This document shows, piece by piece, positions 6,498-27,560 of a DNA stretch of 43,501 nucleotides. The stretch is from a virus (taxonomy: Duplodnaviria; Heunggongvirae; Uroviricota; Caudoviricetes). Where the stretch lies: the IMG/VR virus record IMGVR_UViG_2547132420_000011; one strand, 5' to 3'. The translations under genes were made by a program, and so were the position numbers. Each line of letters starts with the position of its first letter. Positions within the stretch are counted from its first letter, which is position 1. Below the pieces are notes generated by a model, which had not been told where the DNA came from, searched no databases, and worked only from the letters and a program-made list of their open reading frames with translations.

Positions 6498-7136
6498 TTA
6501 AATATCTTGTTGAATTTTAAAGCATACGCCCAATATGCAAGATAGATCATCCAGCATAATTGAAGGGTAGCGAGGATTCGTGGGGACTAAAAGAATATCC
6601 GGCCCTTCTATCTCCAGTTTACGAATGACAGGTGTTGTGGTCCCTTTGGGTAAGGCAAGGACAATATTTCCTGGTTGTACGGTTCGATCGGGATCAACAA
6701 AAACTGTTGAACCATTTGGGATGGAAACTCCCCCACCAGATGTTGACATACTGTCACTCTCTAGAACAACTGCAAAGGTATTGACCGGGATTTCTCCGAC
6801 AAGCTGCACACAAGAGGTTATTGAGGAATTTTTCATATAATCACTCCAGCTTGCTGCCTGCTGAAGTGATAGTAGCGGAACCGTTTTTATCGGCGGTAAA
6901 GATAGATCAAGCGAATCACCTGTATTTAACTCTCCTCCATTAAGAAGCCAATTTTCGTTTACTTTCAATATTTTTGCCAGTGAACTTATGTAACGCGAGG
7001 ACGGCGCTCCTCCACCGTTCATCCATTGACTTACGGAGCCTTTTGATGCGCCAGTGCCATTGACAAGGTCTTTGCCTTTCAGGTTTAGCGCATGCATACG
7101 TTGGGTTATGCGTTCAGATATAGTTTGCTTGCTCAT
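6498..7136 (-). CDS. cI-like prophage repressor (HTH plus S24 LexA-type peptidase domain)
   Basis: 212 aa; N-terminal HTH region (LKGKDLVNGTGASKGSVSQWMNG), C-terminal S24-like region with Ser (ESDSM) and Lys; divergent from the cro-like gene across an operator region. Confidence 0.85.
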   Translation of the reverse strand: MSKQTISERITQRMHALNLKGKDLVNGTGASKGSVSQWMNGGGAPSSRYISSLAKILKVNENWLLNGGELNTGDSLDLSLPPIKTVPLLSLQQAASWSDYMKNSSITSCVQLVGEIPVNTFAVVLESDSMSTSGGGVSIPNGSTVFVDPDRTVQPGNIVLALPKGTTTPVIRKLEIEGPDILLVPTNPRYPSIMLDDLSCILGVCFKIQQDI

Positions 7137-7227
7137 GTTTTGATTTTAAAACACAGATGGTTTTGTTTCTTGACTTTCTTTGGTTTTGATTATTAAACTT
7201 TTGACGTTCAGTTTTATGGAGCGACTC
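7137..7227. promoter_or_regulatory. Divergent immunity promoter/operator region (OR/PR/PRM analogue)
   Basis: 91-bp AT-rich intergenic region between divergent repressor and cro-like genes; repeated TTGA(C/T)TTT and GGTTTTG motifs. Confidence 0.5.
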
Positions 7228-7458
7228 ATGAAAAAATCAGAAGTATTAGGCTATTTTGGCGGAGTTGTTAAAACAGCCGCAGCTCTTGGAACGTCAAAAA
7301 CCACAGTCAGCATGTGGGGGGAAGAGGTTCCGTGGAAATGGGCGTTGCTAATTCAGGCAGTCACTGCCGGGGCGCTCAAATATGAGTTACACATACCGAC
7401 GGTTGTCATTCCCGGTTCTGATCATAATCCGCCTTCTAACCAAGGGGGGGATTCATGA
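7228..7458 (+). CDS. Cro-like HTH regulator
   Basis: ATG at 7228 preceded by GGAG; 76 aa; HTH-like segment VVKTAAALGTSKTTVSMW; stop overlaps the next gene start (ATGA). Confidence 0.7.
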   Translation: MKKSEVLGYFGGVVKTAAALGTSKTTVSMWGEEVPWKWALLIQAVTAGALKYELHIPTVVIPGSDHNPPSNQGGDS

Positions 7459-7880
7459 AAATCAAGCATGAACACATCCGCATGGCGATGAATGCCTGGG
7501 CGCATCCGGACGGCGAAAAAGTACCGGCTGCGAAAATTACCAAAGCGTATTTCGAGCTGGGAATGACGTTCCCGGAACTGTATGACGACAGCCATCCGGA
7601 AGCCCTGGCTCGCAATACCCAGAAAATTTTCCGCTGGGTAGAGAAAGACACCCCTGATGCAGTTGAAAAAATTCAGGCGTTGTTACCAGCGATCGAAAAG
7701 GCAATGCCACCTTTGCTGGTGGCCAGAATGCGCAGCCACAGTTCAGCTTATTTTCGGGAGCTGGTGGAGACGCGGGAGCGACTGGTGAGAGACGCTGATG
7801 ATTTTGTCGCAGTGGCAATCGCCGGTTTCAATCAGATGAACCGTGGTGGCCCGGCAGGAAATGCTGTGGCAGTACATTGA
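7455..7880 (+). CDS. YdaT-like protein (CII-like regulator position)
   Basis: 141 aa, translationally coupled to cro-like gene; size and position match YdaT of Rac-type prophages (from memory). Confidence 0.55.
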   Translation: MKIKHEHIRMAMNAWAHPDGEKVPAAKITKAYFELGMTFPELYDDSHPEALARNTQKIFRWVEKDTPDAVEKIQALLPAIEKAMPPLLVARMRSHSSAYFRELVETRERLVRDADDFVAVAIAGFNQMNRGGPAGNAVAVH

Positions 7881-7951
7881 CTGACAATAGCCATATCGAA
7901 TCGCTTCCGGCAACTCGTGAGTAAAAAGATTCGGTATCAGAAGAGGTGAGT

Positions 7952-9022
7952 ATGGCTAACGCCTGGCTCAGATTATGGCATGACATGCCAAATGACCCTA
8001 AGTGGCGAACAATTGCCAGGGTGTCAGGGCAGCCAATTGCAACAGTGATGGCAGTGTATATCCACCTCCTGGTGAGCGCGTCACGAAATGTCACGCGAGG
8101 TCACATTGATGTCACGACAGAAGATTTGGCAAGTGCGCTCGACGTGACAGAAGAGGTAATTGATTCAATTTTGCAGACGATGCAGGGGCGGGTACTTGAT
8201 GGTGATTTAATCACTGGATGGGAAAAACGCCAGGTGCTGAAAGAGGACAACGGCAATATTTCGCAAACCGCAAAATCTCCGGCAGAGCGCAAGAGGGCGC
8301 AGCGAGAGAGGGAAAGAAAGCGGGAACAAAATGGCGATTGTCACGGCGAGTCACGAAATGTCACGCACATGTCACGACGAGTCACGACAGATAAAGATAC
8401 AGATAAAGATACAGATCAAGAAGATCAAAACACTATGGTCCATGGCGTAAAAAACGCCACGAACCAGGCAGGGGATGTTCAGACCGTCAATCTTGGTCAG
8501 CCAGCAGGCACGACACCGGAAGCCGATTCAGCGTATGCGCTGAAAGCCGATTCGGGCGCTGTGCAGCAGGTGATGACCGCAAGGCCGGAGCAATCACACC
8601 AACTGCAGCAGCCCGAAGCCGATTCCGCCATTCAGCGGGAAGCCGATCGGGTAGTCCCGGAAAACACCGGGCAGTCTGTGGGACGAGTGGATTATCCGGA
8701 TGTGTTCGAACAGGTCTGGCGGGAGTACCCGTTGCGTGCTGGGGCAAACCCGAAGAAATCCGCTTTCAGTGCCTGGAAGGCCAGATTACGCGAGGGGGTG
8801 CCACCAGAGGCCATGCTGGATGGCGTGAGGCGTTACGCAAGATACTTGGCGGCTACCGGGAAAACGGGAACGGAATTTGTTCAGCGAGCGACGACGTTTT
8901 TTGGACCGGACCGGAATTTTGAGAACCCCTGGTTGCTCCCGGTAAGCGGCACGAACAACCAGCGTTGTGTGAATCATATTTCTGAACCGGATAACGAAAT
9001 TCCGCCGGGCTTCAGGGGGTAA
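7952..9022 (+). CDS. Replication initiator (O-like functional analogue) carrying iterons within its own gene
   Basis: ORF 7946..9022, ATG at 7952 preceded by GAGG; two in-gene clusters of GTCACG repeats at 10-11 bp spacing followed by an AT-rich segment, as for ori-lambda inside O. Confidence 0.65.
   Translation: MANAWLRLWHDMPNDPKWRTIARVSGQPIATVMAVYIHLLVSASRNVTRGHIDVTTEDLASALDVTEEVIDSILQTMQGRVLDGDLITGWEKRQVLKEDNGNISQTAKSPAERKRAQRERERKREQNGDCHGESRNVTHMSRRVTTDKDTDKDTDQEDQNTMVHGVKNATNQAGDVQTVNLGQPAGTTPEADSAYALKADSGAVQQVMTARPEQSHQLQQPEADSAIQREADRVVPENTGQSVGRVDYPDVFEQVWREYPLRAGANPKKSAFSAWKARLREGVPPEAMLDGVRRYARYLAATGKTGTEFVQRATTFFGPDRNFENPWLLPVSGTNNQRCVNHISEPDNEIPPGFRG
8080..8116. repeat. Iteron cluster 1: four GTCAC(G/A) repeats at 8080, 8090, 8100, 8111
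   Basis: Read directly; spacing 10, 10, 11 bp; encodes SRNVTRGHIDVTT. Confidence 0.6.
8340..8413. repeat. Iteron cluster 2 plus AT-rich direct repeats (putative replication origin)
   Basis: Five GTCACG repeats at 8340, 8350, 8360, 8371, 8381, then tandem GATAAAGATACA x2 (8390-8413). Confidence 0.6.
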
Positions 9023-9062
9023 GTGTTAATTTCTGGTCATGAGGTAATTTTCAGGAGGGCTT

Positions 9063-9485
9063 GTGGCAAAAGTTTTTACACAAGAAGAGCGGGAAAAAAT
9101 TAAAGGGCAGGTTCTTGAACTCGTACGCCAGAGTGGGCGCGAGACGTTACGACAACTGGAAGCTAAAACTGGGGCAACAAGATATCTGATGAGCGTTCTG
9201 GCCAGAGAGCTGGTTGCCAGTGGCGATGTATACAATTCTGGCTACGGGTTATTCCCGTCTGAACAGGCTCGTAAAGACTGGCAAAATGCCCGCAAAAAAT
9301 TATCGAGGGCAAAGCTGAAGAAACCGGTTGTGGTTGATCCGGACCTTATCTGGTCATTACCTGACGGAGAAATACGTCGCTACGACAGTCGCCTAAACAT
9401 AATCTGTCGCGAGTGCCGGAAGAGCGAAGTTATGCAGCGCATATTGTCGTTTTATCAGGGGGATGTTCGGTATTTATTGAAGTGA
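9063..9485 (+). CDS. Hypothetical protein, 140 aa (last gene of replication module before cargo)
   Basis: GTG start preceded by AGGAGG (9053-9058) at 4-nt spacing; basic C-terminal half; no recognisable helicase-loader motifs. Confidence 0.5.
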   Translation: MAKVFTQEEREKIKGQVLELVRQSGRETLRQLEAKTGATRYLMSVLARELVASGDVYNSGYGLFPSEQARKDWQNARKKLSRAKLKKPVVVDPDLIWSLPDGEIRRYDSRLNIICRECRKSEVMQRILSFYQGDVRYLLK

Positions 9486-9819
9486 CGAGATTAAAGTGCA
9501 TTAGTTCAGATGCAAATTGACATTTTGTGGCACAGGGTAGAGCTAGCGTGGTTGTCCGCTTTGTGCCAAGAGCAGACGCTGGTAATTCGTGCCTAATATA
9601 CTTCACTTAACTTATATCCCAGCTTTGATACAGATCATACAAATTAAATGCCCCAGTAATTGGCAGGCTGAGTAACTTAAAACTCCTTAGAATATAGGAT
9701 GATTTGTATCGGCACTCATTCCACCATGCATTCCGATTAACCCCGCATAGCCAGTTGAACTTTGCTACTCTGTGAGAGGTAGTACCTTCTATCCAGTGCG
9801 GATTTAATTAATGGAATAA

Positions 9820-11823
9820 ATGATTATGAGTGAAAATGATACAACCCCAAAGAAGTCTACAAGCCAGATTAACAAAGCGGTATTCTTTACATCTGCTTTG
9901 CTAATTTTCCTTCTTGTCGCCTTTGCCGCCGTATTCCCGGATGTCGCCGACAAAAATTTTAAACTACTTCAGCAACAAATCTTCACGAATGCCAGCTGGT
10001 TCTACATACTTGCTGTGGCCCTGATTTTACTGAGCGTCACGTTCCTTGGACTCTCACGTTACGGTGATATAAAGCTGGGCCCAGACCATGCGCAGCCTGA
10101 TTTCAGCTACCACTCCTGGTTCGCGATGCTTTTTTCGGCAGGGATGGGGATCGGCCTGATGTTCTTTGGCGTTGCCGAACCTGTGATGCATTATCTTTCG
10201 CCACCTGTCGGCACTCCAGAGACCGTTGCGGCAGCGAAGGAAGCCATGCGCCTGACGTTCTTCCACTGGGGTCTGCACGCATGGGCAATTTATGCCATCG
10301 TGGCGCTGATTCTGGCCTTTTTCAGTTACCGTCACGGTCTGCCTTTAACGCTGCGTTCTGCGCTCTATCCCATTATCGGCGATCGCATTTACGGGCCTAT
10401 AGGCCACGCGGTTGATATCTTCGCCGTGATAGGCACTGTCTTTGGCGTTGCAACATCGCTGGGTTACGGTGTATTGCAGGTGAATGCCGGTTTGAACCAT
10501 CTTTTCGGCGTGCCCATCAATGAAACGGTACAGGTCATTTTGATCGTGGTCATCACGGGGTTAGCGACGATTTCGGTGGTGTCCGGCCTGGACAAGGGAA
10601 TACGCATCCTGTCTGAGCTTAATCTGGGCCTGGCGGTGTTGCTCCTGGCGCTGGTCTTGTGCCTGGGTCCCACTGTGCTTCTGCTGAAGTCATTTGTGGA
10701 AAATACGGGTGGTTATCTGTCGGAACTGGTGAGTAAAACGTTCAACCTTTACGCGTATGAACCCAAGTCGAGCAACTGGCTGGGGGGCTGGACATTATTA
10801 TACTGGGGATGGTGGCTTTCATGGTCGCCGTTTGTAGGTATGTTCATTGCACGCGTTTCCCGCGGCAGGACAATTCGTGAGTTCGTGACTGGCGTGTTGT
10901 TTGTTCCCGCCGGCTTTACGCTCATGTGGATGACGGTGTTTGGAAACAGCGCCATCTATCTCATCATGAACCAGGGCGCCACTGACCTCGCCAATACCGT
11001 TCAGCAGGATGTTGCGCTTGCCCTGTTTAATTTCCTGGAGCATTTCCCGTTCTCTTCCGTGCTGTCATTCATTGCAATGGCGATGGTCATCGTCTTCTTT
11101 GTAACGTCTGCTGATTCGGGGGCAATGGTTGTGGATACTCTGGCATCAGGTGGGGTGGCAAACACGCCCGTCTGGCAGCGAATTTTCTGGGCATCGCTCA
11201 TGGGCGTTGTTGCTATTGCCCTGCTGATCGCAGGGGGGCTGAGTGCGTTGCAAACCGTAACGATAGCGAGTGCATTGCCCTTCTCAGTTATCTTATTAAT
11301 ATCCATATACGGACTGTTAAAAGCCCTGCGTCGGGATTTGACCAAGCGTGAAAGCCTTAGCATGGCGACTATTGCTCCTACGGCTGCACGTAACCCAATT
11401 CCCTGGCAGAGAAGGTTACGCAATATCGCGTATTTGCCGAAGCGCTCTCTTGTGAAACGTTTTATGGACGACATTATCCACCCCGCCATGACGCTGGTTC
11501 AGGAGGAACTTAACAAGCAGGGAACGATAAGCCACATCAGTGACGCCGCCGAGGATCGTATTCGCCTTGAAGTCGATTTGGGCAACGAGCTGAATTATAT
11601 ATATGAAGTGAGGCTTCGCGGGTATAACTCACCGACCTTCGCGCTCGCTGCGCTGGATAATGATGAGCAGCAGAGTGAACAACATCGATATTATCGCGCT
11701 GAAGTCTATCTCAAAGAGGGCGGCCAAAATTATGATGTAATGGGCTGGAATCAGGAACAGCTGATTAATGACATACTGGACCAGTACGAAAAACACCTGC
11801 ACTTCCTGCATCTGGTTCGTTAA
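9820..11823 (+). CDS. BCCT-family transporter, BetT-like (choline/betaine/carnitine)
   Basis: 667 aa, multiple TM helices; motifs GIGLMFFGVAEP and WTLLYWGWWLSWSPFVGMFIARVSRGRTIREF typical of BCCT transporters; hydrophilic C-terminal tail as in BetT; ATG at 9826 is an alternative start. Confidence 0.85.
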   Translation: MIMSENDTTPKKSTSQINKAVFFTSALLIFLLVAFAAVFPDVADKNFKLLQQQIFTNASWFYILAVALILLSVTFLGLSRYGDIKLGPDHAQPDFSYHSWFAMLFSAGMGIGLMFFGVAEPVMHYLSPPVGTPETVAAAKEAMRLTFFHWGLHAWAIYAIVALILAFFSYRHGLPLTLRSALYPIIGDRIYGPIGHAVDIFAVIGTVFGVATSLGYGVLQVNAGLNHLFGVPINETVQVILIVVITGLATISVVSGLDKGIRILSELNLGLAVLLLALVLCLGPTVLLLKSFVENTGGYLSELVSKTFNLYAYEPKSSNWLGGWTLLYWGWWLSWSPFVGMFIARVSRGRTIREFVTGVLFVPAGFTLMWMTVFGNSAIYLIMNQGATDLANTVQQDVALALFNFLEHFPFSSVLSFIAMAMVIVFFVTSADSGAMVVDTLASGGVANTPVWQRIFWASLMGVVAIALLIAGGLSALQTVTIASALPFSVILLISIYGLLKALRRDLTKRESLSMATIAPTAARNPIPWQRRLRNIAYLPKRSLVKRFMDDIIHPAMTLVQEELNKQGTISHISDAAEDRIRLEVDLGNELNYIYEVRLRGYNSPTFALAALDNDEQQSEQHRYYRAEVYLKEGGQNYDVMGWNQEQLINDILDQYEKHLHFLHLVR

Positions 11824-11886
11824 CAGCAACATGCCGCCACAGAGGCGGCATTTATTTATCCCGGCTGCAATATGAGGGAATGCAGA

Positions 11887-13164
11887 ATGATTTCACGCTG
11901 GAAATGGATGCTGAAGCAGACATTTAAAAAACTATGGTTCAGGGCAACGTTATTCGCAATTGTCGCAATAATAACGGCCCTTTTATCAATTCTTTTTAAA
12001 TCAATGATACCTGAGTCGGTTTCCGTGAAGGTTGGTGCGGAAGCAGTCGATAACATTCTGAACATACTGGCATCGAGTATGCTGGCAGTGACCACATTTT
12101 CGCTGAGCATCATGGTCACAGCCTACGGTTCAGCCACTACTAATGTGACTCCCAGAGCTACTCGTTTAGTTGTTGAAGACGTCACCACACAAAATGTACT
12201 GGCCACCTTCATCGGTTCTTTTCTCTTCAGTCTGGTAGGGATTATTGCCCTCAATATGGGAGCTTATGGAGAAAGGGGGAGAGTCATTTTATTCATTGTA
12301 ACACTGGTTGTCATTGCCTTAATCCTCATCACATTGCTTCGCTGGATACAGCATTTGACCTCTCTGGGGAGGGTTGGTGAGACAACGGCAAAAGTAGAAC
12401 AGGCGGCCATCGAAACATTTATTGCGAGAGCAAGAAATCCCTGTCTCGGCGGATATCCATGGCTTGAGAACAATGAACAGCCGAAAGGAACGGTTGCAGT
12501 TTATCCGAAAAAGATTGGCTATATTGAATATGTTGATATGGTGAAACTCAGCAAGCTGCTGACCAATGATCCCCGTCATGTATACCTCGTGGCGCAGCCG
12601 GGCAGTTTCATACATCCGTCCACGCCAGTTTTGTACCTGAGTCAGGGCCAGGAGTCATCAATCAGCACCGATTTACTTGAGACGATTATTGTCTCGGATG
12701 TACGTTCATTTGCTCAGGACCCCCGATTTTGTCTTAGCGTCATGGCCGAAATAGCCTGCCGAGCCCTTTCCCCCGCAGTGAACGATCCTGGAACCGCCAT
12801 TGATGTCATTGGCAGAGGTGTACGTATACTTTCCGCTTACGCGCAGAATAAATCTGATGAAATAGAAGTGAAATATCCTTCTGTACATGTTGCACCACTT
12901 CAGAATAACGATCTACTTGAAGACTTTTTCTCACCTGTTGCGCGCGATGGTGCCAGTATGAGGGAAATTCAGATAAGGGTACTTAAAGGACTGTCGATGC
13001 TGAGTAAGGGTTGGCCTGGAATTTTTGCTGAAGCCGCACAAACCCTAGCATTTGAAACATTAGAGCATGCTACTCGTGCTGACCATATAGATTCTGACAG
13101 ATATCTAATAAAATCAATTTATTATAATTTATTTAGTGGCGAAGATTCTAATAAAAAACCATAG
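11887..13164 (+). CDS. Membrane protein with N-terminal TM helices and soluble C-terminal domain (DUF2254-like, from memory)
   Basis: ORF 11872..13164; ATG at 11887 has a better GAGGGA spacing; four predicted TM segments in the first 170 aa. Confidence 0.65.
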   Translation: MISRWKWMLKQTFKKLWFRATLFAIVAIITALLSILFKSMIPESVSVKVGAEAVDNILNILASSMLAVTTFSLSIMVTAYGSATTNVTPRATRLVVEDVTTQNVLATFIGSFLFSLVGIIALNMGAYGERGRVILFIVTLVVIALILITLLRWIQHLTSLGRVGETTAKVEQAAIETFIARARNPCLGGYPWLENNEQPKGTVAVYPKKIGYIEYVDMVKLSKLLTNDPRHVYLVAQPGSFIHPSTPVLYLSQGQESSISTDLLETIIVSDVRSFAQDPRFCLSVMAEIACRALSPAVNDPGTAIDVIGRGVRILSAYAQNKSDEIEVKYPSVHVAPLQNNDLLEDFFSPVARDGASMREIQIRVLKGLSMLSKGWPGIFAEAAQTLAFETLEHATRADHIDSDRYLIKSIYYNLFSGEDSNKKP

Positions 13165-19833: not shown

Positions 19834-20423
19834 GGACTGGTTTATTGTATGCCAAATGATTATTAAAAAGGTTGTGTTAATAACAAAATCCGAAATAATA
19901 TGCCTGCATATTTTTATCTTGCTTATATTCTGCATATTGTGCATAGCAGGCTCATCCCTGCAATCAAAACTGTATGATGAGTATTTTTTTTTTCCTTTTT
20001 TCCAGTCATCTGATGATGACCTGCTTCTTTTTAATCCGGATCGACATCAGTTTTTTAAGATAATTCCTGCGAGTTATATGCATAAATACCACAAACTCCG
20101 CATTTTATGTGGTTGGGAGTTGCCGGGCGCGCAGTGAGTTTGCTAAGAAAACTCCTGCATGGTGAATCCCCCTGTGCGGTGGGGTGATACCATTAACCTT
20201 TTCTGTCGCCGACAGGTATCACGAACATTTTGTTCACCGGGAGGCACCCGGCACCATGCACTTCAATAGATTCTCTCCACATTATGGATATTCTTTCAGA
20301 ATATCCCACGCAGACTTTGTGTAAATGTTAACAAATGTGCGTTTTATTTGATCTGATTCGCTGTTTGAGCGTCCAAAACAACGGTATATATAATCCTTTA
20401 CTATATGACATATGTGAGGAAAA

Positions 20424-26465: not shown

Positions 26466-27560
26466 ATGAGCAGACCGGACTGGGGGGCGTTGCAGCAGGA
26501 GTATATTGCTGAATACACCCGCTCCGGTATATCTCCGGTGGCATGGTGTGAAGCAAGGGGACTGAACTACGCAACAGCCCGTCGTTACATCAAAAAAACT
26601 CCGAAAAATGCGCAGAAAGAAATGCGCAAAACTGCGCAAAAAAGTGCGCGAAAAAAAACTGCGCAGACTGCGCAAAGGCAGAACAGAAAATCTCAGAAAA
26701 AAAAGGCTGTATCCGATGCACTCCTGATTGAGGGGGACACGGAAGAAATTTCGTTCTGCCCCGATGAATTCGGTATTTCTGACCAGCAGGCAAAATTCGC
26801 CATGTTGGTTGCTCAGGGGAAAAAGCCGACAGAGGCATACCGACTGGCTGGTTATGAGGGGCAAGGTGCGACAGCTAACAGCAACGCCAGCCGTATGCTT
26901 AGAAATGCCAGGGTTTATCGTGCTATCAGCTACTTCCGCAATCAGTACCAGAAACGCTATACCGCAGACCTGGATTTACTGGTGAGCCAGTTGATGGCCA
27001 TTGTCCAGGCCGACCCCAATCAGTTGGCACAATTTCGCCGTGTTAACTGCCGTTATTGCTGGGGCGAGAATCATCTCTACCAGTGGCGTGATATTGCAGA
27101 ATTCGATAAGGCTGCGGCACAGGCCTCCAGAGATGGTAAACCCGAGCCGGAATATGGAGGCCTCGGCTTTGTTGATAACGCCATACCCAATCCTGATTGC
27201 CCGAAGTGCTGCGGTGAGGGAACAGGACAGCTTTATATGGCTGATACCACACTGCTTGATGGGGATGCGCGGCAATTATATGCAGGGTCAAAGCTCGGAA
27301 AATACGGTGTTGAGATCCTGCTGGAGGATAAGGCTGCCGCCCGGCGTGAATTGTTGCGTTTGCTTTCTGCTGGCGGGGCATTATGTGCAGATAAGCGGCT
27401 ACAGGAACTGGAAATTGAACGGCGCAGAATAGAGAACCAGAAGCTGCGCAAAGAGATCGAAACGGTGGAGGATAATGAACATCCCCAGCCTGTGGCGATC
27501 AATATTAATGTGGTTGATGCCAGATTAAGGAGTGATGAAGATGATCTCTCCGACGCTTAA
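26466..27560 (+). CDS. Terminase small subunit with extended Cys-rich C-terminal region
   Basis: 364 aa; N-terminal HTH, Lys-rich repeat, then motif GATANSNASRMLRNARVYRAI typical of small terminases (from memory); C-terminal Cys clusters CRYCWGENH and CPKCCGEG. Confidence 0.7.
   Translation: MSRPDWGALQQEYIAEYTRSGISPVAWCEARGLNYATARRYIKKTPKNAQKEMRKTAQKSARKKTAQTAQRQNRKSQKKKAVSDALLIEGDTEEISFCPDEFGISDQQAKFAMLVAQGKKPTEAYRLAGYEGQGATANSNASRMLRNARVYRAISYFRNQYQKRYTADLDLLVSQLMAIVQADPNQLAQFRRVNCRYCWGENHLYQWRDIAEFDKAAAQASRDGKPEPEYGGLGFVDNAIPNPDCPKCCGEGTGQLYMADTTLLDGDARQLYAGSKLGKYGVEILLEDKAAARRELLRLLSAGGALCADKRLQELEIERRRIENQKLRKEIETVEDNEHPQPVAININVVDARLRSDEDDLSDA
26609..26674. repeat. Six TGCGC(A/G) hexamer repeats in A-rich context inside terS (candidate pac/TerS-binding site)
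   Basis: TGCGCA at 26609, 26623, 26633, 26660, 26669 and TGCGCG at 26645, located by codon position; encodes KNAQKEMRKTAQKSARKKTAQTAQ. Confidence 0.45.

Follow-up and report, generated by a model that had tools for sequence, protein, structure and literature searches.

Repeats, an AT-rich tract and a hairpin within an initiator gene

The sequence analysed was a 43,501-nt stretch of viral DNA (the window; IMG/VR record IMGVR_UViG_2547132420_000011), apparently a complete lambdoid prophage of Escherichia coli. An initiator gene of the replisome-organizer type lies on its plus strand at 7952-9022 and encodes 356 amino acids (aa). Two clusters of short direct repeats (iterons), an AT-rich tract and a hairpin, which together span 8080-8466, are wholly contained in this gene; the segment is interpreted here as a theta-replication origin bound by the product of its own gene, a reading to which comparative sequence evidence lends a probability of about 0.8. 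The open reading frame runs from 7946 or 7952 to 9022, and the ATG at 7952 is the likely start codon, as GAGGTG lies 4 nt upstream of it and homologues begin with MANAWLRLW. The protein was assigned to phrog_3729 (‘replication initiation protein’) in PHROGs; when its halves were searched separately, one was assigned to ‘replisome organizer’ and the C-terminal domain to ‘DnaD-like helicase loader’ or ‘primosomal protein’. Its NCBI protein name is ‘phage replisome organizer’.

The repeats were located by pattern search and direct reading, which yielded nine same-strand copies of GTCAC(G/A). Four copies, starting at 8080, 8090, 8100 (GTCACA) and 8111, form cluster 1 (8080-8116, plus strand; codons 43-55), and five copies of GTCACG, starting at 8340, 8350, 8360, 8371 and 8381, form cluster 2 (8340-8386, plus strand; codons 130-145). 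The spacings are 10, 10 and 11 bp in the first cluster and 10, 10, 11 and 10 bp in the second, with 229 bp between the two; i.e., these are the multiple direct repeats in helical phase by which an iteron-type theta origin is recognized. A tenth copy is inverted (GTCACG on the minus strand, 8143-8148) and falls within codons D64-V65-T66. At the plus-strand rate outside the segment, 0.15 copies of GTCACR would be expected in 307 bp (Poisson probability of at least nine, ~9e-14), and 300 Markov-1 simulations of the window gave a maximum of three copies per 307-bp span. Any 6-mer with at least four copies within 60 bp was seen in just two of 100 simulated windows. No second GTCACG cluster was found elsewhere in the 43.5-kb window, where the remaining GTCACR matches are scattered singles.

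Cluster 2 is followed directly by a 49-bp AT-rich, purine-rich tract (8387-8435, plus strand; codons 146-162), comprised of 2.9 copies of ACAGATAAAGAT, which Tandem Repeats Finder reported at 8387-8421, and then GATCAAGAAGATCAAAAC. The GC content falls to 0.33 at 8380-8439 (0.29-0.33 at 8387-8435), compared with ~0.5-0.6 in the remainder of the gene. The tract, which also encodes an acidic linker (TDKDTDKDTDQEDQN), is a probable DNA unwinding element. Two GATC (Dam) sites are located inside it (8414-8417 and 8423-8426), and AGATCT occurs at a similar position of the tract in several enterobacterial relatives; regulation by methylation or SeqA through such sites is conceivable. An imperfect palindrome with 13-bp arms (TGGTCCATGGCGT-AAAAA-ACGCCACGAACCA) lies directly 3' of the tract (8436-8466; codons 162-172). 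Folded as single-stranded DNA, it gave a hairpin of -8.7 kcal/mol (z -2.75), and it forms the third element of the putative origin.

A search for DnaA boxes found none in the origin segment or close to it (the closest match, at 8968 and thus ~500 bp downstream, has one mismatch), and an Rfam search of the origin region returned no RNA family. A scan of 7000-9700 for promoters and terminators gave counts at chance level. One minus-strand ‘promoter’ (8364-8337) proved to be composed of iterons and one minus-strand ‘terminator’ (8466-8436) to be the palindrome, and both were set aside.

An initial annotation of the window had described nine repeats in two clusters with a 10-11 bp period, followed after cluster 2 by tandem repeats in an AT-rich stretch, and all of this was recovered by the reading, the pattern search, Tandem Repeats Finder and the drop in GC content. 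The extent that it proposed, 8080-8413, takes in both clusters, but the AT-rich tract continues to ~8435 and the hairpin lies outside altogether. Similarly, it had correctly placed the element inside the gene, but its codon range of 45-158 is replaced, counting from the ATG at 7952, by the codon numbers given above.

Variation of the element among relatives

Relatives were gathered by scanning one genome per species, which produced 80 further loci, 35-99% identical and mostly from Proteobacteria, and were examined with a detector of periodic repeats that selects the 6-mer with the most copies at a spacing of 10, 11, 20, 21 or 22 bp. At least five periodic copies of a 6-mer were present in the first 650 nt of the gene in 70% of 83 relatives, compared with none of 161 flanking 650-nt regions, and the clusters lay at nt ~129-188 and ~340-450 of the gene. 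Pseudomonas phage P7869 and Aeromonas phage pAEv1818 (70% identical) use GTCACG in two clusters ~260 bp apart, and the Manatee Spring phage genome and Ralstonia phage Firinga use CGAACGC and GCAACGC, respectively; all four have two clusters, in which the repeats are spaced by 10 bp. A scan of viral contigs returned near-identical E. coli prophages only and was uninformative. The distant cyanophage relatives Mwe-JY25 and Cy-LDV1 had no clear iterons with the detector used, so the layout is either not universal or has diverged beyond detection there. In another distant relative, Microcystis phage MACPNOA1, GTCACACCCAAGTCACGGCGTGACA occurs twice, 35 bp apart (2849-2908 of locus L089); each unit holds a direct and an inverted GTCAC, and GGGGGGGGATATA-type repeats follow in place of the AT-rich tract, i.e., the same core in a different arrangement.

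The core of the repeat has the form NNN-ACG(C), in which the triplet is constant within a protein clade; the variants found were GTCACG, GTAACG, GTGACG, GCAACG, CGAACGC and ACTACG. The GTC triplet is used in the window and in Pseudomonas, Aeromonas, Bordetella, Serratia and others, GTA in Pantoea and Enterobacter, GTG in Paraburkholderia, GCA in Cupriavidus, Burkholderia and Firinga, and CGA in many Betaproteobacteria. Wherever both clusters exist they share one core, which has switched jointly in at least five clades. The N-terminal domains (N-domains) that accompany GTCACG in E. coli, Pseudomonas, Aeromonas, Bordetella and Serratia for the most part share 59-75% identity with that of the window, and enterobacterial relatives with other N-domains carry other cores. 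The repeats thus change with their cognate initiator, as do those of iteron-type theta origins.

As the core tracks the N-domain and not the host, the binder would be phage-encoded, and most simply the N-domain itself. It is possible to imagine that a host factor or a different phage protein, such as the DUF977 or CII-like product of the neighbouring genes, occupies the repeats instead, the more so as the winged helix of the N-domain has no obviously basic recognition helix and binding by this domain is a prediction. However, the same core is found in distant hosts while different cores are found within Enterobacterales, the neighbouring genes vary where the iterons are constant (DUF977 in the window, a primase/helicase in P7869 and a lambda P-like gene in E. 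coli MS 196-1), and the origin segment has no DnaA box in or near it. Binding by such another protein is therefore regarded as highly improbable.

The repeats could also have arisen without any function in DNA, as a side effect of a peptide that is repetitive or duplicated (NVT-RG-H...VT), or of gene conversion between two regions of the gene. The two clusters do encode similar peptides, ASRNVT and ESRNVT, and in the CGAACGC clade the conserved ERG and RER motifs are encoded by GAACGC-like DNA. However, a period of 10-11 nt is not a multiple of three, so successive iterons are read in all three frames, and cluster 2 encodes a disordered, poorly conserved linker and yet has invariant 6-mers in E. 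coli, Pseudomonas and Aeromonas. Codon usage at conserved amino acids was examined in the GTCACG clade (22 loci from different species, with a median amino-acid identity of 69%). The commonest codon accounted for a fraction of 0.92 in the cluster-1 codons and 0.53 elsewhere in the domain (Mann-Whitney p 2.5e-5), whereas the spacer codon R49 was free (0.41). This result was replicated in the CGAACGC clade (0.85 vs 0.54, p 2.7e-4), where a spacer position was likewise free. The inverted copy behaves alike: its V65 codon, GTG, is fixed in all 22 GTCACG-clade loci, and CGTGAC or TGTGAC is retained there in the E. coli, Pseudomonas and Aeromonas genes.

A DNA alignment of the genes from these three genera showed the 6-mers to be invariant amid otherwise diverged DNA, and showed the iteron copy number to change by whole repeat units. 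A 21-bp in-frame insertion in cluster 1 of E. coli MS 196-1 (locus L170, 1413-1990) and E. albertii (L091) adds two GTCAC copies, giving six rather than four, and lengthens a protein loop by 7 aa. The repeats are under DNA-level selection at synonymous sites in two independent clades, and this, with the joint switching of the core in both clusters, leaves an origin in the peptide or in gene conversion barely credible. In the CGAACGC clade (L004, L127, L122 and others; gene nt ~130-165 and ~330-390) the iteron overlaps the codons of two conserved motifs, of which ERG (GAA CGC GGn) belongs to the loop and RER (CGC GAA CGC) to the basic helix; here the iteron sequence and the conserved residues may have shaped each other.

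The AT-rich tract and the hairpin are also shared by the family. The GC content of the 45 nt 3' of the last iteron was below that of the upstream gene in all 51 relatives compared, with means of 0.34 and 0.56, respectively. Purines account for a fraction of 0.73 on the coding strand of the tract, which usually starts with (C/T)AGATAAAGA, a motif that clades with different iteron cores have in common. Among the tract codons of the relatives, Asp is encoded by GAT in 92% of cases, compared with 45% elsewhere in the gene (Fisher p 7e-30), and Lys by AAA in 81%, compared with 47% (Fisher p 1e-14). This bias persists even in GC-rich hosts, which argues for selection for easily melted DNA, as expected of an unwinding element; by GC content and codon bias, the repeats thus adjoin the AT-rich unwinding element that an iteron-type theta origin has. 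Hairpins with stems of at least 6 bp were found at the corresponding place in 51% of loci and in 20% of control regions (p 4e-6); they are GC-rich and lie ~30-60 nt past the last iteron.

Almost every relative has cluster 2, even in clades without cluster 1, and some clades (e.g., L162, L163, L150 and L123) retain only cluster 2, the tract and the hairpin. By this distribution, cluster 2 would be the core initiator-binding array of the origin. Cluster 1 is probably an auxiliary initiator-binding array, an assignment much less certain than that of the origin; the upstream cluster, set in a variable loop of the predicted DNA-binding domain, appears as a feature of the initiator’s family.

These observations bear on whether the repeats might be regulatory operators, acting in autoregulation, in blocking read-through or in titration, with replication starting elsewhere. 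Iterons in plasmids commonly act in copy-number control too, both clusters lie within a transcribed gene, and cluster 1 has no AT-rich neighbour; in SPP1, the initiator G38P has been proposed to block forks at its second site, oriR (PMC6316719). Against this, an AT-rich tract under DNA-level codon selection always follows cluster 2 and a hairpin often does, which is the signature of an origin and not of an operator; the layout equals that of SPP1 oriL and ori-lambda, both experimentally proven (see below); and the window provides no further GTCACG cluster. An exclusively regulatory role is accordingly judged unlikely; cluster 1 may well have a regulatory function in addition to, and not in place of, that of the origin.

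The N-domain and its iterons have been combined with varied downstream sequences. Homology between the window and E. coli MS 196-1 includes both and stops at the AT-rich tract, where the recombination junction is located (~8410-8440 in the window, ~1890 in L170). Past the tract, the MS 196-1 gene encodes a DnaT-like single-stranded-DNA-binding domain (PF17948), and a lambda P-like gene follows; the full PF17948 domain is also present in other members of the family. Conversely, Stx phages (75/02 type, ‘Eru4’) share the C-terminal half only, from nt 8544 on. The gene after the homologue encodes a primase/helicase in P7869 and a DnaB-type helicase in Firinga and Cy-LDV1, and a helicase gene also stands behind the homologous gene in pAEv1818. 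The occurrence of the same N-domain and iterons with different downstream modules suggests one specificity cassette, joined at the unwinding element and coupled to different helicase-recruiting modules.

The initiator protein and a proposed mechanism

No Pfam family matched the initiator at threshold. The N-domain aligned with positions 1-119 of 121 of PF09681 (Phage_rep_org_N) at 16.8 bits, below the cut-off of 23.3, and this family was matched at E <= 0.01 in four of the 83 relatives; TIGR01714 matched with E 0.016 and 15.4 bits, compared with its cut-off of 49.8. An AlphaFold2 model, made with 129 aligned sequences, has an N-terminal winged-helix domain at aa 1-95 (pLDDT mostly ~94-98, and 86 in the loop block), comprised of helices 4-11, 16-25 and 29-45, a loop (46-55), helices 56-63 and 67-77, a beta wing (78-88) and a helix at 90-93. 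Beyond it, a basic helix spans aa 110-126, and a disordered acidic linker (aa 142-243) precedes a helical C-terminal domain at about aa 245-330 (aa 250-316 in the model). The N-domain superposes on the DnaD N-terminal domain, the winged helix to which it is closest, and the fold is also related to the winged helices of RepA_N. A profile of the N-domain found no match among Protein Data Bank (PDB) sequences, and Foldseek with this domain gave weak winged-helix matches only (E > 0.8). The close homologues are 302 to 374 aa long.

Placed on the model, cluster 1 codes for the last part of helix 29-45 together with the variable loop in which the invariant R49-G50 lies. Cluster 2, like the tract and the hairpin after it, encodes the start of the linker, right behind the basic helix. 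The core of the element is therefore located at a domain boundary, as in lambda O and SPP1 G38P.

The protein ends in a DnaT-like tail encoded at 8948-9019 (plus strand), i.e., the last 24 residues, aa 333-356 (GTNNQRCVNHISEPDNEIPPGFRG; …VNHISEPDNEIPPGFRG). These residues correspond to positions 156-179 of 179 of the NCBIfam DnaT model and align with the end of the DnaT chains 6aep_A, 2ru8_A and 9zbt_D in the PDB, sharing the motif VN.(I/V)SEPD..IPPGFRG. The likeness to E. coli DnaT is limited to this tail. It suggests mimicry of a host primosome contact, and the tail is a candidate contact for the host helicase-loading machinery; the binding partner of the tail was left unsettled in PMC13377028. 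The protein of Aeromonas phage pAEv1818 ends in PPGF, behind what by eye is a fuller region that resembles the DnaT C-terminal domain.

A mechanism can be inferred that comprises binding by the N-domain, melting of the tract, a role for cluster 1 and recruitment of a helicase. The N-terminal winged helix would bind direct repeats of ~7 bp, (A/G)N-GTCACG, and as the iterons are one helical turn apart the protomers would lie on one face of the DNA in an oligomeric complex. The complex on cluster 2 would strain and open the adjoining AT-rich, purine-rich tract; the hairpin may help or stabilize strand opening, or signal priming or loading. From ~230 bp upstream, cluster 1 together with the inverted copy would probably loop to the core complex, or regulate either this complex or the expression of the initiator. 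The C-terminal domain and the DnaT-like tail would bring in host DnaB/DnaC, which is proposed because no helicase or loader gene was recognized adjacent to the initiator in the window.

The two arrays could be bound more tightly into one system. In a two-part origin, the initiator would sit on both arrays and loop ~230 bp of its own coding sequence, coupling origin firing to initiator shut-off in a cis-acting copy-control switch; specificity changes (in the NNN of NNN-ACGC) would then be needed at once in both arrays and in the protein loop, and the N-domain with its iterons would be a single, self-contained cassette that recombines at the AT-rich tract with different C-terminal modules for helicase recruitment. 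This proposal is tentative and on balance doubtful; it is weakened by clades whose loops are alike but whose iterons differ (L162 vs L163), and by those without cluster 1.

Several points weigh against an origin bound by its own gene product, or against parts of that interpretation. Approximately 25 of the 83 relatives have no recognizable cluster 1, and about a dozen of these have a clear cluster 2, so cluster 1 is not essential to the design. The helical phasing between the clusters was significant only at an assumed period of 10.0 bp (R 0.47) and not at 10.5 bp; as it is confounded by the gain and loss of whole 10-bp iterons, it was dropped as evidence. The helix at aa 67-77, presumably the recognition helix, is acidic and hydrophobic, not basic, and the DnaD N-terminal domain is known chiefly as an oligomerization module. 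Mutual information between iteron class and residues was highest for columns that are themselves encoded by iterons (H51 and R45) or lie in the basic helix overlapping iteron-like codons. Shared ancestry also confounds the residues that track the iteron class, and none is put forward as determining specificity. Recruitment of a helicase without a loader gene is conjecture, and the support for the origin as a whole comes from comparison. Finally, no paper describing the origin of this family was found in the literature searched; this search was incomplete, and an older description is possible. The papers searched contained no description of this origin under the GTCACG iteron or the Eru replication types, and no mention of the two-cluster layout. 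The type of element is a textbook one, whereas the family, its matched series of iterons and its conserved two-array layout appear to be undescribed.

Known origins, genomic setting and significance

The SPP1 origin oriL, which is experimentally proven, consists of iterons and an unwinding element inside gene 38 (PMC5737612). Like the origin proposed here, it lies in the part of the initiator gene that codes between the N- and C-terminal domains, and its short, initiator-bound direct repeats adjoin an AT-rich unwinding element (PMC5737612; PMC6316719). The sequence in the middle of gene 38 contains GAAACGACA/AAAGACAC units ~11-12 bp apart, followed by GATAACAAT-type AT-rich repeats, the same layout as that of cluster 2 and the tract in the window. 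In the manner of the G38P type, the window thus has its putative origin embedded in an organizer gene as repeats and an unwinding element. Neither initiator is of the AAA+ class, and SPP1 also has a second initiator-bound array, oriR, elsewhere. However, oriR is ~13 kb away and has its own AT-rich region, whereas the second array of the window is ~230 bp upstream, in codons of the predicted DNA-binding domain, and has no AT-rich tract. In SPP1 the initiator gene is followed at once by the phage's own genes for a loader and a helicase (39 and 40), and the prophage in the window lacks both there. No homology to G38P was detected by hhalign with a profile of 83 N-domain sequences (probability 0.2, E 0.33).

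The origin of lambda lies within gene O and comprises four iterons of 18 bp and an AT-rich region of 38 bp (PMC3349717). It is placed where the N-terminal half of the initiator, which binds the origin, meets the recruiting C-terminal half (PMC3349717; PMC12663957), and the element in the window is located similarly. The initiator gene occupies the same genomic slot, after cI, cro and cII, and lambdoid phages likewise exchange the N-terminal half as a module together with its iterons. In lambda, a palindrome flanks the AT-rich region, as the hairpin does in the window. Unlike the single array of lambda, the window has two arrays of direct repeats, 229 bp apart, with a core of ~7 bp and a period of 10-11 bp. 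The next gene downstream is not a P-type loader, but a DUF977/Ren-like gene; a P-like gene does follow the MS 196-1 variant of the same N-domain module. No match to Phage_rep_O was found in the initiator at E <= 0.1 in Pfam.

Other initiators are further removed. The RepA_N plasmid initiators (pSK41 type, Gram-positive) and DnaD are plasmid and chromosomal proteins of Firmicutes with no match at the sequence level, and DnaD itself is not a sequence-specific origin binder. Compared with both SPP1 and lambda, the window stands out by a very short core at one-turn spacing, the second array ~230 bp upstream in codons of the predicted DNA-binding domain, the lack of a dedicated loader and the DnaT-like tail.

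The initial annotation had taken the segment for the prophage origin and the gene product for its initiator, and that proposal gains support from the joint change of repeats and protein, the selection at synonymous sites, the tract, the slot of the gene and the PHROGs and NCBI names. The parallel that it drew with ori-lambda holds for the layout; as the initiator is not of the lambda O family, the comparison is one of analogy. Two separated clusters, which it considered less common, are unusual beside lambda but are the norm in this initiator family.

The gene is preceded by an immunity and early control block (6498-7880), identified by Pfam and PHROG matches and comprised of a CI-like repressor (6498-7136, minus strand), a Cro-like gene (about 7228-7458, plus strand) and a CII/YdaT-like gene (7455-7880, plus strand), the Cro/CII block being given as 7180-7880. 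Its place after CI, Cro and CII puts the initiator gene in the replication slot. A promoter-like site at 7170-7199 was recognized by its match to the consensus alone; rightward early transcription starting at a promoter on the Cro side would traverse the origin, as it does in lambda. The DUF977/Ren-like gene downstream (9063-9485, plus strand; Pfam PF06163, E 2e-28; phrog_142), called LygF in related phages, holds the slot of lambda P and is not recognizable as a helicase or loader. The prophage further carries an integrase (545-1663), a large exonuclease, and terminase, portal, head and tail genes.

Behind the replication module, at the place of the nin region of lambdoid phages (9820-13164), there is cargo consisting of a BCCT betaine/carnitine/choline transporter (9820-11823) and a DUF2254 membrane protein (11872-13164). 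The Rfam small RNA STnc100 matches at 20127-20313 (plus strand; 86.6 bits, compared with a gathering score of 47), between the cargo and the late genes. Six copies of TGCGC(A/G), five of them exactly TGCGCA, lie ~11-14 bp apart in an A-rich stretch at 26609-26680, within the 5' portion of the gene for the small terminase (26466-27560; Pfam Terminase_2). Besides the iterons, TGCGCA is the sole 6-mer of the window with at least four copies within 60 bp, and the array is a candidate pac (packaging recognition) site.

The element is common. The initiator gene is 98-99% identical in E. coli phage records that include Tritos, Evi and vB_EcoS-689R5, the origin segment (8040-8470) was found in 2077 of 5426 complete E. 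coli genomes, and relatives are present in prophages across Proteobacteria and beyond. In the 12 of 2079 records that were examined, the annotations of the segment were limited to hypothetical protein, ‘phage replisome organizer’ and ‘DnaT-like’ protein.

An element of this kind was to be expected, and the surprise to a specialist is modest. It does provide a rule by which a common class of prophage origins could be annotated, i.e., NNN-ACGC repeats at one-turn spacing within the gene, followed by (C/T)AGATAAAGA and a hairpin. It is a possible basis for predicting replication incompatibility among co-resident prophages. Lamassu defence senses ori-lambda (PMC12663957), and the definition of the origin may bear on the targets of origin-sensing defence systems. 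A phage initiator that has no helicase or loader of its own, but carries a copy of the DnaT tail, may show how the loading of the host helicase is hijacked. The family also offers a natural series of matched initiator and iteron specificities in which the evolution of origin recognition can be studied.

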